Source: an uncultured Candidatus Berkelbacteria bacterium | Lineage (GTDB): Bacteria > Patescibacteriota > UBA1384 > 2-12-FULL-50-11 | Length of the DNA: 60,512 bases | Direction of reading: 5' to 3' | Assembly: GCA_903839975.1 (NCBI GenBank) | Contig: CAIMEH010000027.1 | Location: 1 to 60,512 of the forward strand | Made by a program: the position numbers and the translations under genes | Shown: piece by piece, positions 1-60,512 of the stretch | How the letters are laid out: each line of letters starts with the position of its first letter | Position numbering within the stretch: position 1 is the first letter of the stretch | The notes under the pieces: generated by a model | The model's database searches: none | Seen by the model: only the letters and a program-made list of their open reading frames with translations | What the model was told of the DNA's origin: nothing

Positions 1-74
1 AGAAGGTCCCAAGGGTTTGGCTGTTCGCCAATTAAAAGGGTACGCGAGCTGGGTTCAGAACGTCGCGAGACAGT
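1..74 (+). rRNA. rrl: 23S rRNA, exon upstream of intron (domain V, truncated by window start)
   Basis: Matches conserved 23S PTC sequence GGTCCCAAGGGT...GAGCTGGGTTCAGAACGTCGCGAGACAGT, ending at the base equivalent to E. coli U2604. Confidence 0.97.
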
Positions 75-917
75 AGAATGTGCTGTCTAACGCAGCTAGT
101 TTTAGAACTAGTTGCTCTAACTGCTTGAACAACAGTTAGCTAAATTTGGCTAAATGCTGGAAACTCTGAGTATCTTGTACTACTTGTGTTACGATGGTCC
201 TAATGACCATCTTTCGCAGTGAAAATGTACCAAGTGCAGACAATCAGCAGGAAAGGCCTCAAGGCATTAATCCATGGTATATTTCGGGATTTGTTGACGG
301 CGAAGGAACGTTTCACGTTTCTTTTGCCAGACGCACAGATCTGCCCAAAAAGTGGGCAATAATTCCGGAATTCCACGTATCGCAAGACTTTGCTCGGTCG
401 TCTGTGCTCGAAGAGATTAAAACTTCCTTTGATTGCGGGCAGATTAAGCAAAATCACCGCGGTAAATCTAACGATTCAACCTACGTTTTCGTAGTGCGAA
501 ATCGCCAAGATCTGATAAATAAAATAATTCCATTTTTCGACCGATATCCGATGCGCTCATCAAAGCAGAAAGACTTTTTAGTCTTTGCCCAGATTGTGGC
601 GCTGATGGAGAATGGTTATCACCGCTCGGAAAAGGGCTTCAGGGAAATTACCTGGAAAGCTTTTCAAATGAACGGTGGTGGCAAGTATCGTAAACGAAAG
701 ATGGCGGAAATTCTTGAGGAATCCTCAGAGACTATATGCCAGAATGTGCAGGATTAAAACACGCACATAAGATATAGTCCGGACTGCATGGCGACATGCA
801 GACCCCACAGAAATGTTGGGGCGCCACGAAACTAATTTTGTGGTTTTCTCGGCCGTTGCCGAGACGAAAGGTTACAATCACGTAGCAGTGATCATGTGCC
901 TGGTAAGTAACAGATCG
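75..917 (+). mobile_element. Group I intron in 23S rRNA (insertion equivalent to E. coli 2604/2605)
   Basis: Removal restores GAGACAGT|TCGGTCC. P1: AGACAGT pairs with GCTGTCT (82-88) with U.G at the splice site. Core motifs P (AATGCTGGAAA 153-163), Q (AATCAGCAGG 242-251), R (TCAGAGACTATA 725-736), S (AAGATATAGTCC 769-780). Terminal G917. Confidence 0.93.
194..757 (+). CDS. Intron-encoded single-motif LAGLIDADG homing endonuclease
   Basis: WYISGFVDGEGTF motif, FHVSQ, IIPFFDRYPMRSSKQKDF typical of single-motif LAGLIDADG enzymes; inside the intron. Confidence 0.92.
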   Translation: MVLMTIFRSENVPSADNQQERPQGINPWYISGFVDGEGTFHVSFARRTDLPKKWAIIPEFHVSQDFARSSVLEEIKTSFDCGQIKQNHRGKSNDSTYVFVVRNRQDLINKIIPFFDRYPMRSSKQKDFLVFAQIVALMENGYHRSEKGFREITWKAFQMNGGGKYRKRKMAEILEESSETICQNVQD

Positions 918-1198
<281 letters not shown>

Positions 1199-1330
1199 CT
1201 CTTTTTTGCCAACCTACGTGTTCGCACGTAGATTTCTAGGCAGAAAAGAGAAGACAAAAAATGCTGAGGAAGAGATATCTTCAACTGCGGCTTGGAACAA
1301 CAAAATTTACTTAGAGATAAGAGGTGAATC

Positions 1331-13068: not shown

Positions 13069-14211
13069 ATGAAAAAAATTCGGGAGAAGATACTGTGGTG
13101 GGCGGCTAAAAGGCGAATCGCCAAATATCACTGCAAGATTATTGCTGTTGGTGGTGCTATGGCCAAGACTTCGACGAAGAAGGCGATCGGCACAGTGATG
13201 GAATTGGCATATCCCGGTCAAGTAAAAGTTGGCTACGGCAATTTGAACTCGCTTTTGGGCGTGCCACTCTCGATACTGGGTTTTGAGATTGATTTTTACG
13301 AACAAAAAGTTGGGCTCTGGCAGTGGTTCGTAATTCTGATAAAAGCAATTTGGCGCGGATTATTCTTAAAGCTACCAAGATATTTAGTTCTGGAGTACGG
13401 CACCGACAAGCCAGATGATATTAAACAAATAACCGAGCAGCTGCGTCCGGATATTGGCGTAATGACGATTGTTGGCCCGGCGCATTTAGCAAACTATCCA
13501 TCGGTCGAGGCTATGGTTAAGGACGAGGGCTATCTAGCCGAGTCCGTCAAAGAAGACGGTATGTTGTTAGTTAATTCTTCCGACCAATACCTAACCGAAC
13601 ATCATCAGCGCACCAAAGCCCGGGTGGTAAACGTGGTCTGCTCGCTCGAGGAAATTGCGATTAAATTTATGGAAGCCCTGGCGCGCGAGTTAAAAATTGA
13701 CGAGGGGATAATTACTAAAGCTCGCGAGCAGTTTAGTCCGCCAGCGCGCCGATTTAACTACGAAAAACTAAATGGCATAAATCTGCTGGACGATTCGTAC
13801 AACGCTTCGCCGTTAGCGATTCGGGCGGCGTTACATTTATTGAAAAAAATGCCCGGCCGTAAGGTGGCAATTCTCGGCGATATGCGTGAACTTGGCGACT
13901 ACAGTGCTGGTTATCACAAAGAAATCGGTGCATATGCCAAAACCATGGCTGATTTGGTGATTGCTGTTGGTCCGGAGGCCAAAGAATACGGCGCCGAAAA
14001 ATGGTTTGAAAATTCCGAGAACGCATCTAAAAAAATCTTGGCAGATCTTCGCAACGGGGATAGTGTACTTGTAAAAGGTTCAAAATCTGTTCATATGGAA
14101 CTAGTGACAAAAATAATAAGGGGCGCGTATGCGCCATTATGCCTCTCGGATAAGCCGGAGGATATAAGAGAAAACTACGGAGGAATAAATGGATCTAGCA
14201 ACAGCCAGTAA
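13069..14211 (+). CDS. murF: MurF-like Mur ligase (short form)
   Basis: NLNSLLGVPLS, DDSYNASP, ILGDMRELG, VLVKGS; precedes mraY. Confidence 0.82.
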   Translation: MKKIREKILWWAAKRRIAKYHCKIIAVGGAMAKTSTKKAIGTVMELAYPGQVKVGYGNLNSLLGVPLSILGFEIDFYEQKVGLWQWFVILIKAIWRGLFLKLPRYLVLEYGTDKPDDIKQITEQLRPDIGVMTIVGPAHLANYPSVEAMVKDEGYLAESVKEDGMLLVNSSDQYLTEHHQRTKARVVNVVCSLEEIAIKFMEALARELKIDEGIITKAREQFSPPARRFNYEKLNGINLLDDSYNASPLAIRAALHLLKKMPGRKVAILGDMRELGDYSAGYHKEIGAYAKTMADLVIAVGPEAKEYGAEKWFENSENASKKILADLRNGDSVLVKGSKSVHMELVTKIIRGAYAPLCLSDKPEDIRENYGGINGSSNSQ

Positions 14212-51012: not shown

Positions 51013-51438
51013 ATGACTAACGAACTAAATACTAAAAAACTTACAGGTATTATCGACAAAGACGAGCAGACTCGTCGTAATAGCCCGACGGCTATTATCG
51101 AATTGGGCGGCAAGCAGCACATTGTTTCTAATGGCGCCAAAGTTGTAGTTAATCGCTTAAAGAACGAAGAAGGCGAAACTATTACCGCTAAAGATATGCT
51201 TGGTGGTGCAGATATTCAGCTCAAAGTTGTTAGCCATATGCTCGGCAAAAAAATTAACGGACTAAAATTCAAAAGCAAAGTTCGCTACACTCGTCACTAC
51301 GGTCACCGTCAGCAGCTAACTACCTTAGAAGTATTAGCCGGCACAGCTCCAAAAGTAGCCGAGGCAAAAATCTCTGAACCAAAAACCGAAAAAGTTGCCA
51401 AAAAGCCTGCCGCTAAAAAAGTAGCTGCCAAGAAGTAA
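51013..51438 (+). CDS. rplU: 50S ribosomal protein L21
   Basis: AIIELGGKQH, GHRQQLT; Lys/Ala-rich tail. Confidence 0.92.
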   Translation: MTNELNTKKLTGIIDKDEQTRRNSPTAIIELGGKQHIVSNGAKVVVNRLKNEEGETITAKDMLGGADIQLKVVSHMLGKKINGLKFKSKVRYTRHYGHRQQLTTLEVLAGTAPKVAEAKISEPKTEKVAKKPAAKKVAAKK

Positions 51439-51629
51439 TGATTAAAACAGTCATTAACTTTTTCAAGTCCATAGTCGACGAAGCCAAAAAAGTTGTTTGG
51501 CCAAACCGCGATACCGTTACCCGTCACAGCGTCATGGTTATTATTACTGTCGTCATCTCAATTCTAGCTGTTGCCGGAATCGATTATGTATTTCAAAAAC
51601 TGTTACTATTAACATTAAATCAAGGGTAA
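51438..51629 (+). CDS. secE: Preprotein translocase SecE
   Basis: EAKKVVWP motif plus single TM; precedes nusG. Confidence 0.93.
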   Translation: MIKTVINFFKSIVDEAKKVVWPNRDTVTRHSVMVIITVVISILAVAGIDYVFQKLLLLTLNQG

Positions 51630-51632
51630 AAA

Positions 51633-52214
51633 ATGGCAGACGAATTTGACAAAATTGAAGATAAACAGCCCGACGTAAACCGCCAAACAGGTCAGGCTGG
51701 TTGGTATGTTATTCATACCTACGCCGGTTACGAAGATCAAGTTGCCGAAAACTTGTTGCAGCGCGCTGCTACATTACACCTAAAAGATTTTATCTTTGAG
51801 GTTATTGTTCCAAAAGAAAAACAAGTTGAAATTAAAAATGGCAAGCGTAAAGTCGTTGAAAAACGCAGCTACCCAGGTTATGTCTTCGTTAATATGATTG
51901 TTACCGACGAATCTTGGTATGTTGTCCGCAATACTCCAAGCGTTACTGGTTTCTTAGGTTCAGGCGTTCGCCCAACTCCGATTCCACAATCTGAAGTTGA
52001 TTCGATCAAAGCCAAGATGGCCAGCGACGAGCCAGAGCACACAGTCGATTTGCAGATCTCTGACTTGGTTCGCATTAGCGATGGCCCACTTAAGGGTTAC
52101 GAAGGTAAAATCACCGAAGTTGACGCCCTCAAAGGTAAAATTAAAGTTTCAGTCTCCATGTTTGGCCGCGAAACTCCAGTCAGTCTCGATTTCCTACAAG
52201 TAAAGAAAATTTAA
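51633..52214 (+). CDS. nusG: Transcription factor NusG
   Basis: WYVIHTYAGYE, YPGYVFV, KOW domain MFGRETPV. Confidence 0.96.
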   Translation: MADEFDKIEDKQPDVNRQTGQAGWYVIHTYAGYEDQVAENLLQRAATLHLKDFIFEVIVPKEKQVEIKNGKRKVVEKRSYPGYVFVNMIVTDESWYVVRNTPSVTGFLGSGVRPTPIPQSEVDSIKAKMASDEPEHTVDLQISDLVRISDGPLKGYEGKITEVDALKGKIKVSVSMFGRETPVSLDFLQVKKI

Positions 52215-57748: not shown

Positions 57749-58051
57749 ATGCCAAAGAAAGATATTCAAACAACCGAAGAGCGCTACGTCTGCGAAGAAT
57801 GTGGCACCGAAGTTCCAACAGCTGAAGAAGTCTGTCCAAACTGTGGCGCGCCATTGGAAAAATTTGGCGATCATCCCGGAGTCGTTGAAGAAGAAGACGA
57901 TGTAATGGATCTCAGCGACGAGGCCTTGCATAAAGGGCTTCCAAGCGAAGAAGACGATGGAGCTCCGCTGTCGTTAGAGGCGTTGCGAGAAGAGGAAGAC
58001 AGCGACGACGAATTGGACGCTTACGAAAAGGGCCAAAACGACGGGGAGTAG
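57749..58051 (+). CDS. Small zinc-ribbon protein with acidic tail
   Basis: CEECG...CPNCG; Asp/Glu-rich C-terminus. Confidence 0.8.
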   Translation: MPKKDIQTTEERYVCEECGTEVPTAEEVCPNCGAPLEKFGDHPGVVEEEDDVMDLSDEALHKGLPSEEDDGAPLSLEALREEEDSDDELDAYEKGQNDGE

Positions 58052-58092: not shown

Positions 58093-59430
58093 ATGCCGTT
58101 TGAAATATACAATACTTTATCGAGCAAAAAAGAAGAGTTTAAAAGCATAGAACCGAATAAAGTCGGGATGTATGTTTGTGGCCCGACAGTTTACGATTAC
58201 GACCATGTCGGCCACGCTAGAACTTATCTCAGTTTCGACCTATTGAACCGCTTTTTACGGTTTCTAGACTACCAGGTTAAGTATATCCAGAACATAACCG
58301 ATGTCGGCCACTTGGCTAATGACGCCGAAGTAGGAACAGATAAGATTCAACAAAAGGCCCAGGATTCTGGCCAGTCTGTCAAGCAGGTTATTGAGCATTA
58401 TACCGAGGCACATCTGAAGGATATGGAAGCTTTGAATATTATCATGCCAGATAACTTCCCGAAAGCCTCAGAGCATATTGCCGATATTATCGAGTTTATT
58501 AAGGGTCTAACAGAGAAGAATATGGCATATGTTACTAGCCAGAATAACGTCTATTTCTCGGTTTCTAAGGATATGGATTACGGTAAATTAAGTCATCGTA
58601 ACCTAGCAGAGATAATCACTGGTACAAGGGTAGACTCCGCCGCCGATAAGCGTTCGCCGGCCGATTTTGCCCTGTGGAAATCCTCACCAGTTACAGTTAG
58701 CGACTACACCTGGGAATCTCCTTGGGGTAGAGGCTATCCTGGGTGGCATATAGAGTGTTCGGCAATGAGCCGTAAATACCTAGGTGATACCTTTGATATT
58801 CATGGTTCGGCCATTGAACATGTTTTCCCGCATCACGAGAATGAGATTGCTCAAAGTGAGAGTTTAACAGGTGTAGAGATGGCACATTACTGGGTACATT
58901 CAGGAATGCTTACAACTCATGGACAGAAGATGAGTAAATCATTTCACAACCAAGTTACAGTTCAAGATGCCTTAAAAACATATACTAATAACGAGTTACG
59001 TTTAGCTTTTTATCAAACCCATTACAGAAAGCCATTTGATTACACGAAAGAGTCACTTGAACAGGGTGTTTCACTCCGTCACAAGCTATTTTCAGGTAAC
59101 GACTTACTACCAGAAAAGACCGACCAACAGGTTTGGCAGGGGATTATCGACGCCTTAAACGACGATCTTGATACCAGTAAAGCCCTCCAGCTATGGGGCG
59201 AGAATGCTAAACTTGTTTCCAGAGAAGATACTGGCAAACTATTTGAGATATTCGGACTGGTTTACAAACCTATTACAGAGAACGAAAAAGCTTCCGAACT
59301 TGCCAAGGATCGTGATGCCGCCCGTGCGTCGCAAGACTTCTTAACCGCAGATAATCGAAAAGCCGAGTTGATACAAATGGGCTACGAAGTTTTGGATACG
59401 CCAAACGGCACTGTTTACGTTCCACGCTAA
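58093..59430 (+). CDS. cysS: Cysteine--tRNA ligase
   Basis: CGPTVY, HVGH, GWHIECS, FPHHENE, KMSKS. Confidence 0.96.
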   Translation: MPFEIYNTLSSKKEEFKSIEPNKVGMYVCGPTVYDYDHVGHARTYLSFDLLNRFLRFLDYQVKYIQNITDVGHLANDAEVGTDKIQQKAQDSGQSVKQVIEHYTEAHLKDMEALNIIMPDNFPKASEHIADIIEFIKGLTEKNMAYVTSQNNVYFSVSKDMDYGKLSHRNLAEIITGTRVDSAADKRSPADFALWKSSPVTVSDYTWESPWGRGYPGWHIECSAMSRKYLGDTFDIHGSAIEHVFPHHENEIAQSESLTGVEMAHYWVHSGMLTTHGQKMSKSFHNQVTVQDALKTYTNNELRLAFYQTHYRKPFDYTKESLEQGVSLRHKLFSGNDLLPEKTDQQVWQGIIDALNDDLDTSKALQLWGENAKLVSREDTGKLFEIFGLVYKPITENEKASELAKDRDAARASQDFLTADNRKAELIQMGYEVLDTPNGTVYVPR

Positions 59431-59454
59431 ACCCAAAAATACGTGCTCAATTCC

Positions 59455-59483
59455 TTGACTTTTTGAATGGCATATGCTATTAT
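59455..59483 (+). promoter_or_regulatory. Sigma70-type promoter with extended -10
   Basis: TTGACT-17-TATTAT preceded by TG. Confidence 0.7.
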
Positions 59484-59489
59484 CCAACA

Positions 59490-60512
59490 GCACCGTAAAA
59501 ACGTGCCGCGACTATGAGGGTAGTTGCCTAAAGAGCGCCCCCCGAAAGTAGTTAACTTTAACATCAGAGCCCGTCACACAACTGTTCCGCATTTCTACGC
59601 GACAAGCTTTGACATAAAAATAAAGACCACATTATATATTCATCGGCATTGCCGTATTTGTCTTTGTATTTTTATCCTCATTGCTTACTAGTTCGATTTT
59701 CGAAACAGTTTCGTGCCGGGCTCAATCTTCACTGCTCACAAATAATTGTGATAAGTGAAGATGACAGAAGCAAAGATGCTTGTGTCATTCTAAAATTCGC
59801 CAAAACGACTTCATGAACGTAACGGAGGACTGTAATGTTATAACTTTGAAGCCCCACCCTGCCTGTCCGGCTCTGCCGGACAGGAGCTCCTCATTGCTCA
59901 CGAACGCACTTTTAATACTGCGCCTTTACGGCGCGGAAAAATTTTCGTGAGCAGCGAGGAGTGACATTAGGAGGAGCTCATGCTAATTTTGCTAATTAAG
60001 GATCTTTCCCCGACAGGGGAGATGATTGTCATAGTCGGATCCGTAATTATTGTAATGTTCCTAACAAGGAACCTCGACAAGAAACGTAAGTAGTATCGTC
60101 CGGCCAAGTGTGCACCTAGACATTTGGCCAATTCCTTATTGTTCATGAAGAAATTCGTGAGCAGAGAGGAGTAGAATCCAGTTTGCCAAAATAGGAGGGA
60201 AAAATTGGTAAATATGTATGAGTTGGTTTTGGCCAGCGTTCGTGCTGGTCAATAATCCTTTGTCTCCGGTAAAGAGACAAAGGTTTCGGCTTCTTTTGTG
60301 AAGCCTAAGTACGAAAAAGCCTCGTGGCGGGAACTAAATTTCCGCAACGACGGAGATCGCCAGATCCTCAGGAGTCGGGCGATTCGTGTTGCTCGTCGCA
60401 AGCGCGAGCTTGCGTTCTAATCTATTTGGTCAGTCATGCGCATATATTGTCTGCGTGGCTGACCAGTCCAAACAGACTCATTTCTAACGAGGAGTGACTC
60501 TGAAGGATTTAA
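59490..60512 (+). ncRNA. Long, densely structured RNA region with repeated hairpin and small ORFs (runs off window)
   Basis: More than 12 stem-loops, long-range helix 59567/59723, four copies of a TCCTCATTGCTCACGAA-like arm, no ORF of 60 aa or more. Confidence 0.6.
59980..60093 (+). CDS. Putative 37-aa hydrophobic peptide with basic C-terminus
   Basis: AGGAGG SD; MLILLIKDLSPTGEMIVIVGSVIIVMFLTRNLDKKRK. Confidence 0.55.
   Translation: MLILLIKDLSPTGEMIVIVGSVIIVMFLTRNLDKKRK

Follow-up and report, generated by a model that had tools for sequence, protein, structure and literature searches.

A candidate boxA-type leader with expanded hairpin modules behind cysS in a Berkelbacteria genome

The DNA analyzed here, referred to as the window, is a whole contig (C27, 60,512 nt) from the genome of an uncultured Candidatus Berkelbacteria bacterium (G000; a 680 kb assembly of 34 contigs, 90% complete). 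Its last kilobase, bounded by the stop codon of cysS (58093–59430) and the contig end, is a hairpin-dense region. We read the region as an expanded copy of a boxA-type leader, that is, a front like that of an rRNA operon, which lies ahead of a plsC-like acyltransferase gene and carries gating or processing hairpins. The chance that this reading is right appears to us to be about even. On this reading the element represents no new class of RNA machine but a leader of the boxA kind with an unusual expansion of hairpin modules. As far as sequence comparison goes, the leader is a previously undescribed structured RNA, limited to one Berkelbacteria family. A literature search on Berkelbacteria noncoding RNA, with supplements left out, gave no relevant report of such elements. 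Bacteria of the candidate phyla radiation have not been cultured, and next to nothing is known of their regulatory RNAs. The present locus offers a new covariation-supported RNA element of one family, with a testable link to Nus factors and boxA.

The leader consists of a 5' hairpin, a two-helix stem-loop with a CUAAAGAGC loop, a single-stranded (C/A)CUUUAACA(A/U) motif and a long hairpin, called hairpin 2 below. In the window, the promoter and the first three parts are located as follows:

59455–59483, plus strand: promoter TTGACT, a 17-nt spacer with the palindrome GCATATGC, and a TG-extended –10 box TATTAT (10 of 12 consensus positions)
59490–59506, plus strand: 5'-terminal hairpin GCAC-CGUAAAAAC-GUGC, taken from the minimum free energy (MFE) structure
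59510–59553, plus strand: conserved two-helix stem-loop at the boxB position, with the outer helix GACUA/UAGUU and the loop CUAAAGAGC at 59528–59536, defined by covariance model R1
59554–59565, plus strand: single-stranded boxA-like motif AACUUUAACAUC, with UUAACA at this place in 15 of 15 copies

Model R1 represents the first 79 nt of the leader and matches 59500–59578 of G000 with 61.7 bits. At E ≤ 0.01 it finds exactly one copy per genome in 15 of the 22 genomes of the order, namely G000 and 14 of the 18 other genomes of the same family (these relatives are numbered from G001 onward); none of the three genomes of the sister family has it. A class-wide search of 151 genomes at E ≤ 0.001 returned 14 (G000 and 13 of the 18 relatives) and 0 of the 132 genomes outside the family. 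Covariation among homologues, which the original prediction had named as a check, is seen in the stem-loop over the 15 genomes: 85.1% of the cells pair against 61.9 ± 2.7 after shuffling, and 53 cells carry double changes against 19.9, values that 0 of 500 shuffles reach in either case. Slid controls gave 26–47% pairing. At the place of the 5' hairpin, G003 has GUUAUG-CUAAAAA-CAUAAC, in which the stem is changed and the loop is the same. Two further candidates were dropped on inspection. A pseudoknot between the conserved loop and boxA revealed no consistent covariation, and a dif or other recombination site, prompted by the TTAACA core, lacks the second arm.

A promoter of the form TTGACT-17-TATTAT had been claimed at the start of the region, and it is indeed present. 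Its 31-mer has a single occurrence in the genome. BLAST found it with 78–88% identity behind cysS in 3 of 18 family genomes. The DNA 3' of cysS was also compared directly from 17 of the 19 family genomes; at up to 8 mismatches, the promoter is found in 8 of these 17 loci, G000 counted. When the whole region was compared with the relatives by BLAST, nothing matched beyond the promoter. In genera without the leader behind cysS, the leader lies elsewhere with its own promoter. Pattern scans for extra homologues gave 3 loci in genome contigs and 1 in metagenome contigs, all distant and without the long region.

The boxA-like motif is promoter-proximal and single-stranded, being situated 73 nt past the –10 box and directly 3' of the covarying stem-loop. 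Published work gives GYTCTTTAANA as the boxA consensus of gamma-proteobacteria (PMC5725501). The motif of G001, ACTCTTTAACA, agrees with this consensus, which comes from a distant phylum, at 10 of 11 positions, and that of G004 at 9 of 11. The family's own rRNA leaders were compared as well; the 23S leader of G000 is unassembled, and for 23S the comparison rests on relatives. The 23S leaders of G001, G003 and G010 (3/3) carry (Y)UUUAACAA, as do the 16S leaders of G001 and G010; the 16S leader of G000 has the variant CCUUAAUAACAAGG, which leaves two of three 16S cases clear. Within G001, the leader TTTAACAACTTGTTTCC and the 23S leader TTTAACAAATTGGTTCC are identical at 15 of 17 positions across TTTAACAAnTTGnTTCC. 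In the 23S operons of the three relatives (3/3), starting 3–5 nt past UUAACAA, 27–30 nt pair unbroken with the 23S trailer as the classical leader-trailer helix. The 23S trailer of G000 carries the matching helix strand (window ~1277–1301). Genes for NusB and RNase III are present in G000 as neighbours on the same strand (C2:50775–51149 and 51343–51729), the RNase III gene being the downstream one.

The element resembles the rRNA antitermination leader (boxB-boxA-boxC) in having a promoter-proximal stem-loop, a single-stranded boxA-like motif and a helix soon after. It differs in that no rRNA follows and boxC was not identified. Because R1 does not match rRNA leaders, these leaders appear to lack the invariant loop of the element. 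The possibility that this is the leader of a local rRNA gene was rejected, since C23 carries the 16S gene and the end of 23S, at window 1–1200, is ~56 kb upstream, with the same order in G003. Published work also places boxA in leaders other than those of rRNA and before long non-coding RNAs (PMC5725501, PMC7862264, PMC10250234).

Hairpin 2 is the second part of the leader that recurs in the relatives. An ungapped stem of at least 14 of 17 pairs, starting no more than 22 nt from UUAACA, is present in 14 of 14 other genomes; at least 15 pairs are formed in 11 of the 14 and 16 pairs in 6. At 168 random positions of the same loci, stems of these three grades were found in 21%, 8.3% and 1.2% of cases, respectively. 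The 5' arm is CUCC/UCCUC-like and the 3' arm GGAG/GAGGA-like, and the remaining stem varies yet stays paired. The arms of G003, CTCCAAATAGCTCACGA/TCGTGGGCTGCTTGGAG, differ widely from those of G000 with the pairing kept. In G005, G010 and G015, the 3' arm is the Shine-Dalgarno (SD) sequence of the next open reading frame (ORF). In G008, two extra copies of the hairpin within the cargo, the variable DNA that follows the leader, supply SD sequences, including the copy before a plsC-like gene. The next ORFs of the relatives are unrelated to one another, and 14 ORFs downstream of the hairpin gave no significant Pfam or PHROGs match (one sub-threshold Pfam and one weak PHROGs match). The 481 nt before the plsC-like gene of G008 fold with z = –9.2 and the non-coding cargo of G003 with z = –4.6. 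Structured cargo in these two genomes points to selection for RNA structure at the locus.

Past the boxA-like motif, the region of G000 is made up of the following features:

59567–59885, plus strand: lineage-specific insert of ~320 nt between boxA and the canonical hairpin (z –5.3 to –7.3)
59886–59962, plus strand: copy A of hairpin 2, with 5' arm GCUCCUCAUUGCUCACG and 3' arm CGUGAGCAGCGAGGAGU (16 of 17 paired, an A.C mismatch beside U.G)
59970–60093, plus strand: GGAGGAG SD sequence (59970–59976) and a hydrophobic 37-aa ORF (59980–60093) whose coding is doubtful
60102–60129, plus strand: hairpin resembling a terminator, with 10 pairs (5 G-C) and a weak U tail
60131–60172, plus strand: copy B of hairpin 2, with 5' arm AUUCCUUAUUGUUCAUG (three C-to-U changes, G.U pairs) and 3' arm CGUGAGCAGAGAGGAGU (16 of 17 paired)
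60193–60255, plus strand: AGGAGGG site and a 16-aa ORF (TTG at 60205), with no coding support on sequence inspection
60254–60465, plus strand: further hairpins at 60254–60286, ~60289–60307 and 60427–60465 (z –4.3)
60488–60512, plus strand: third copy of the 3'-arm end, CGAGGAGUGAC, an exact 11-mer repeat, where GTG at 60494 opens the frame V-T-L-K-D-L off the contig end

The original prediction described a 17-nt arm recurring at 59675, 59726, 59888 and 60133, paired in three cases. All four copies are found at up to 3 mismatches, and three have partners: 59726 pairs with 59746–59762, 59888 with 59944, and 60133 with 60154. The last two of these partners are reverse complements of the arm. The copy at 59675 has a degenerate partner only. 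Elsewhere in the genome, the arm has only two chance-level matches with 3 mismatches. In the 60133 copy, the three differences are all C to T and are accommodated as G.U pairs, as had been noted; G.U pairs favour the plus strand, in keeping with the proposed plus-strand RNA. The reported recurrence of GAGGAGT is likewise borne out by an exact repeat, CGAGGAGTGAC, at 59955 and 60488, and AGGAGG-type sites do sit 5' of short ORFs, the 37-aa ORF (59980–60093) and the 16-aa ORF (60205–60255). In the light of the relatives, the arm is evidently a set of copies of the conserved hairpin 2, which in relatives carries ribosome-binding sites. Copy A is homologous and closest to the hairpins of G001, G003 and G002; the A.C mismatch beside U.G is common to them, and compensatory changes occur between them.

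By all appearances, the region beyond the leader and hairpin is a lineage-specific expansion that arose via insertion and arm duplication. The insert contains a long-range stem (59567–59589/59701–59723), the degenerate arm at 59675 and hairpins at 59725–59762 (with the likewise diverged arm 59726), ~59763–59788 and 59862–59884. When the modules are aligned, likeness is restricted to the ~18-nt arms and an 11-mer. The arm copies are irregularly spaced (51, 162 and 245 nt). A CRISPR array with regular direct repeats does not describe the region, since the spacing is irregular and the inverted partners pair. No remnants of the relatives' cargo proteins were found in the region. A strain variant is represented by a contig of 151 nt (run X2, depth 2), which has the hairpin 59888–59960 with three 1-nt deletions and different flanks, like 59697–59726 on one side and like 60172–60200 on the other. 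This suggests that the modules 59726–59887 and 59961–60171, the latter including the 37-aa ORF, may be absent in a related strain, as if deletions or duplications between arm copies lay behind the variant arrangement. The locus is hypervariable and could be tracked across strains.

The hairpin density of the region exceeds chance. Every stem named in the original prediction was recovered by repeat search and in the MFE structure (59567–59589/59701–59723, 59725–59741/59746–59762, 59862–59871/59875–59884, 60102–60129, 60254–60266/60274–60286 and 60427–60439/60453–60465). Folding energy no better than that of dinucleotide shuffles had been named as a ground for giving up the idea. The plus strand (1023 nt) reaches –392.3 kcal/mol, whereas 40 dinucleotide shuffles gave –281.9 ± 7.4 (z = –14.9); the structure lies far beyond chance. 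The minus strand gave –358.6 kcal/mol (z = –11.1). For the 200-nt windows from 59591 to 60490, all z values fall in the range –4.1 to –7.3. Ordinary values of –0.9, –0.2 and –0.6 were obtained for 59291–59490, 59391–59590 and 59491–59690, respectively, which take in the end of cysS, the promoter and the initial 100 nt of the predicted transcript. As background, 80 windows of 200 nt on the contig average –46.8 ± 7.8 kcal/mol. In 59991–60190 the plus strand has z of –6.0 vs. –2.3 for the minus strand. Promoter-like sites in the region number 3 against 1.7 ± 1.5 expected, all on the plus strand.

Nor does the region look like a gene. The original prediction had claimed that no ORF of 60 aa or more is present in 59490–60512, which holds under table 11, where frames extend to at most 57 aa on the plus strand and 59 aa on the minus strand. 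Coding under another genetic code was rejected, as table 25 and TAG=Q give no long frame (largest 144 aa and 91 aa, scattered). Neighbouring genes have normal frames under table 11; upstream of the region are topA, recR, a gene for a small acidic protein, and cysS. A search of Rfam 15 at the gathering threshold yielded 0 matches in the region, and at E ≤ 10 there were four matches, all far under threshold (three microRNA models and Lacto-rpoB). In the relatives' loci (fetched loci are given L numbers), Rfam gave 0 matches, except for a tmRNA-like gene elsewhere in L014. That the DNA could not be matched to RNase P, tmRNA or signal recognition particle (SRP) RNA is also correct: in G000 the RNase P RNA is on C11, the tmRNA on C5, and the SRP models matched nothing. 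As a candidate, 6S RNA was dropped as well, with only 15 bits. A miniature inverted-repeat transposable element (MITE) cluster, mentioned at the outset as another possible identity, was rejected, as was a dispersed repeat. BLAST of the region against the genome gave self matches only, and the arm with its partner is confined to 59675–60172. Of the two interpretations offered originally, a large unknown non-coding RNA or a modular array, the non-coding, structured and modular character survives, with hairpin units, SD sites and tiny ORFs. One large free-standing non-coding RNA of unknown kind does not, as conservation in relatives is limited to the initial 80 nt and the repeated hairpin.

Extension of the contig had been proposed in order to see the downstream gene. 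Among contigs (2–5x) from four DNA runs, none covers 60447–60512, hence there is no direct extension of C27; the continuation is proposed from synteny, with a plsC-like gene as the probable downstream gene. In G000, a plsC-like acyltransferase gene is found on C1, where its 5' end is cut by the contig end. Such a gene is present in only 3 of the 19 family genomes; the other two, G008 and G001, carry it on the strand of the leader, 1.8 kb and 8.6 kb downstream of it, respectively. The G008 protein starts with M-T-L, seven nt past AGCGAGGAGG, the 3' arm of one of the copies of hairpin 2. In the window, the final 19 nt contain GTG-ACT-CTG-AAG-GAT-TTA (V-T-L-K-D-L) right after CGAGGAG, and alignment of the C1 fragment to the G008 protein begins at about residue 19. 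On the strength of the plsC-like synteny and this comparison of gene starts, C27 would continue into C1 (reverse strand) after ~40–60 nt. The GTG at 60494 is probably the start of the plsC-like gene.

If the region is indeed an expanded boxA-type leader, a plus-strand transcript would begin at ~59490 from the conserved promoter. It would present, in this order, the 5' hairpin, the covarying stem-loop with its invariant loop at the boxB position, and the single-stranded boxA-like site. By analogy, NusB-S10 and other Nus factors could load on RNA polymerase via 59554–59565, and the Nus-modified polymerase would then pass through the long untranslated hairpin-rich stretch. The anti-SD:SD hairpins may hide ribosome-binding sites or act as RNase III cleavage sites, in this way gating the cargo that follows. 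In G000, hairpin 2 would have been copied several times and split from boxA by the 320-nt insert, and the transcript is predicted to run on into the plsC-like gene, whose start would overlap the last arm copy.

Non-rRNA boxA sites, such as those of the suhB 5' UTR and of CRISPR-array leaders, are alike in that a boxA-like site precedes a long, little-translated transcript. The proteobacterial cases are explained by Rho protection or translational repression, whereas here the host belongs to the candidate phyla radiation and none of the 19 family genomes, one of which is a single contig, gave a match to the RNA-binding domain of Rho. With no Rho detected, the gain would lie in processivity through structured RNA or in aid to folding and processing, rather than in protection from Rho. 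In general, boxA-type leaders outside rRNA operons and without detected Rho bear on the roles of Nus factors in processivity, folding and RNase III processing. The proposed gating has its own parallel in SD-sequestering hairpins: the CUCC 5' arm pairs with the GGAG 3' arm, which is the ribosome-binding site in several relatives, and there is a conserved weak point, the A.C mismatch beside the U.G pair.

Several points weigh against this scheme. With Rho not found, the best-known role of boxA, the blocking of Rho, cannot apply. The G000 motif agrees with the boxA consensus at only 8 of 11 positions, the consensus being gamma-proteobacterial and from a distant phylum, and the genome holds 23 instances of the short core CTTTAACA[AT], mainly inside genes. 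The alignment used for covariation was fitted to the model, which favours structure somewhat. The join of C27 and C1 comes from synteny and six residues, without overlapping sequence. As regards gating, 7 of the 14 relatives have no start codon at a usable distance 3' of the arm. In G000 the GAGGAG of the arm abuts the GTG with zero spacing, and, unlike in SD-sequestering hairpins, the SD sequences of the small ORFs, that of the 37-aa ORF included, lie outside the arms. With this zero spacing and with small ORFs that have exposed SD sequences of their own, SD gating is not evident in G000; it suits the relatives better than G000. In addition, stems of ~17 bp are too stable to open unaided. They are far more stable than known RNA thermometers.

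The first rival explanation, which we regard as possible but rather unlikely, is that the region is a precursor of trans-acting stable small RNAs, from which RNase III excises pieces between arms, e.g., 59905–60153, the small ORFs being irrelevant. Its architecture, boxA and then a processing-type helix, mirrors the 23S leader, and the arm at 59888 pairs equally well with 59944 and 60154 (both 89% over 18 nt). RNase III is encoded, the element is single-copy and family-wide, and a stable tmRNA-like RNA of 138 nt lies downstream of it in G002, G010 and G009. However, the rRNA leader-trailer helix encloses a mature RNA, whereas the arms of the element close locally and enclose a loop only, spanning 40–160 nt in 14 of 14 relatives. 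Nothing 3' of hairpin 2 is conserved between genera, and the strain variant is without 59961–60171.

The tmRNA-like RNA itself was found in four genomes, at L014:3297–3435 (G002), G010 C1:663142–663279, G009 C7:6918–7054 and G001 C1:671078–671216. It is ~138 nt long, matches RF00023 with 71–75 bits over both model ends, and is present besides a full-length tmRNA in each genome. Its acceptor stem has G.U as the third pair, and it also possesses a T arm and CCA. Three of the four genomes carry it downstream of the leader; none above threshold was found in G000.

It is quite improbable, in our estimate, that the region is an operon of tiny proteins (37 aa and hydrophobic, 16 aa, 13 aa), perhaps of the type I toxin kind, whose translation is blocked by the anti-SD arm. 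Strong SD sequences do stand at the right spacing before the 37-aa and 16-aa ORFs, the 37-aa product would be one hydrophobic span with a basic tail, and the CUCCUC arms also pair with the GGAGGAGCUCAUG start region (59881–59892 with 59971–59982, 92%). As regards a type I toxin-antitoxin system, the hydrophobic 37-aa ORF does have an SD sequence. A tblastn search of the genome and the fetched loci gave no relative of this ORF, Pfam and PHROGs gave no match, and it is missing in the variant contig. Furthermore, no minus-strand promoter-like site is present, so that an antisense promoter beyond chance is lacking, and the ORFs occupy <20% of the region.

The possibility that the region is non-functional debris, left by duplication, inversion and decay of a hairpin/gene-start junction, is also given little credit here. 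Variation of the region between strains and genera would fit it, as would the confinement of module likeness to ~18-nt arms and an 11-mer and the loss of its partner by the 59675 copy. Yet most stems are unrelated to the arm and nonetheless near-perfect (59862–59884, 60102–60129, 60254–60286), the changes in copy B retain pairing as G.U, and the non-coding cargo of G008 and G003 is strongly structured too. A DNA-level element, i.e., a miniature transposon cluster or integron-like cassette recombination sites, seems highly implausible even though each genus has its own cargo between the leader and the following conserved element and the arm repeats appear to mediate deletion or duplication, since the arm does not occur elsewhere in the genome, no integrase or transposase is nearby, the opposite DNA strand would have A.C mismatches in place of the G.U pairs, and the copy spacing is irregular.

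A broader version of the boxA-type leader reading can be envisaged, although we consider it speculative and on balance unlikely. The Rho-less family may keep a second, rRNA-free rRNA-operon front end as an expression and processing platform for a hypervariable cargo slot. The cargo (orphan genes, the 138-nt tmRNA-like RNA, or the hairpin kilobase with the acyltransferase) would be transcribed by Nus-modified polymerase and gated or cut at copies of a portable anti-SD:SD hairpin, while the repeats would drive gain and loss of modules. If true, this would amount to an integron-like cassette system at the RNA level without an integrase. The likeness to integron cassette arrays is that one promoter is followed by variable, hairpin-separated cargo. 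The differences are that there is no integrase, the repeats are not genome-wide and the strand asymmetry points to RNA. The attC core signature was not seen.

Behind cysS, the 17 loci hold two distinct conserved RNA elements behind the same promoter type. The second is of the form GUCUCGGCUGGGA..GGGAGAG..apical variable stem..UUUCCCUCCUUCCC..CUGGCUGAGAC and lies ahead of signal-peptide proteins that vary by genus; it has no Rfam match. Its sites are C1 ~13479–13574 (minus strand) in G000, just after the plsC-like gene, and those in L013, L017, L020–L028 and L062. In G003, G005, G008 and the g3 genomes the variable cargo precedes it, and in 8 of the 17 loci it stands directly behind cysS.

SRP RNA was sought with RF00169 in 19 family genomes and with RF01854 in G000, in both cases with nothing found. 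A scan for the conserved SRP core motif gave nothing convincing. The leader loops are unlike SRP helix 8, so the idea that the leader is the missing SRP RNA was dropped. The undetected SRP RNA and Rho of the family are either truly missing or too divergent for the models. The stable RNAs of G000 carry large insertions. The 23S 3' end in window 1–1200 takes 1200 nt for model positions 2557–2925 (369 positions), i.e., an insertion of ~800 nt, and is followed by 5S at 1732–1849. The RNase P RNA (C11:12411–13128) takes 718 nt for a 367-position model, with large insertions as in 23S.

In L014, L015, L019, L022 and L053–L055, an extra short RNA-like unit is located between the promoter and the leader. 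Its parts are a hairpin bearing the tRNA D-loop-like YCGGUAG and a stem of terminator type followed by a U run, and the family 23S leaders have a similar terminator-like hairpin just 5' of boxA. In L009 and L011, which come from the same organism, the conserved promoter type is followed by a ~100-nt leader and a secreted protein with collagen-like GPQGPTGPQG repeats. In the gap between recR and cysS, window 57749–58051 holds a 100-aa ORF with an N-terminal CxxC...CxxC zinc-ribbon-like part and a very acidic tail.

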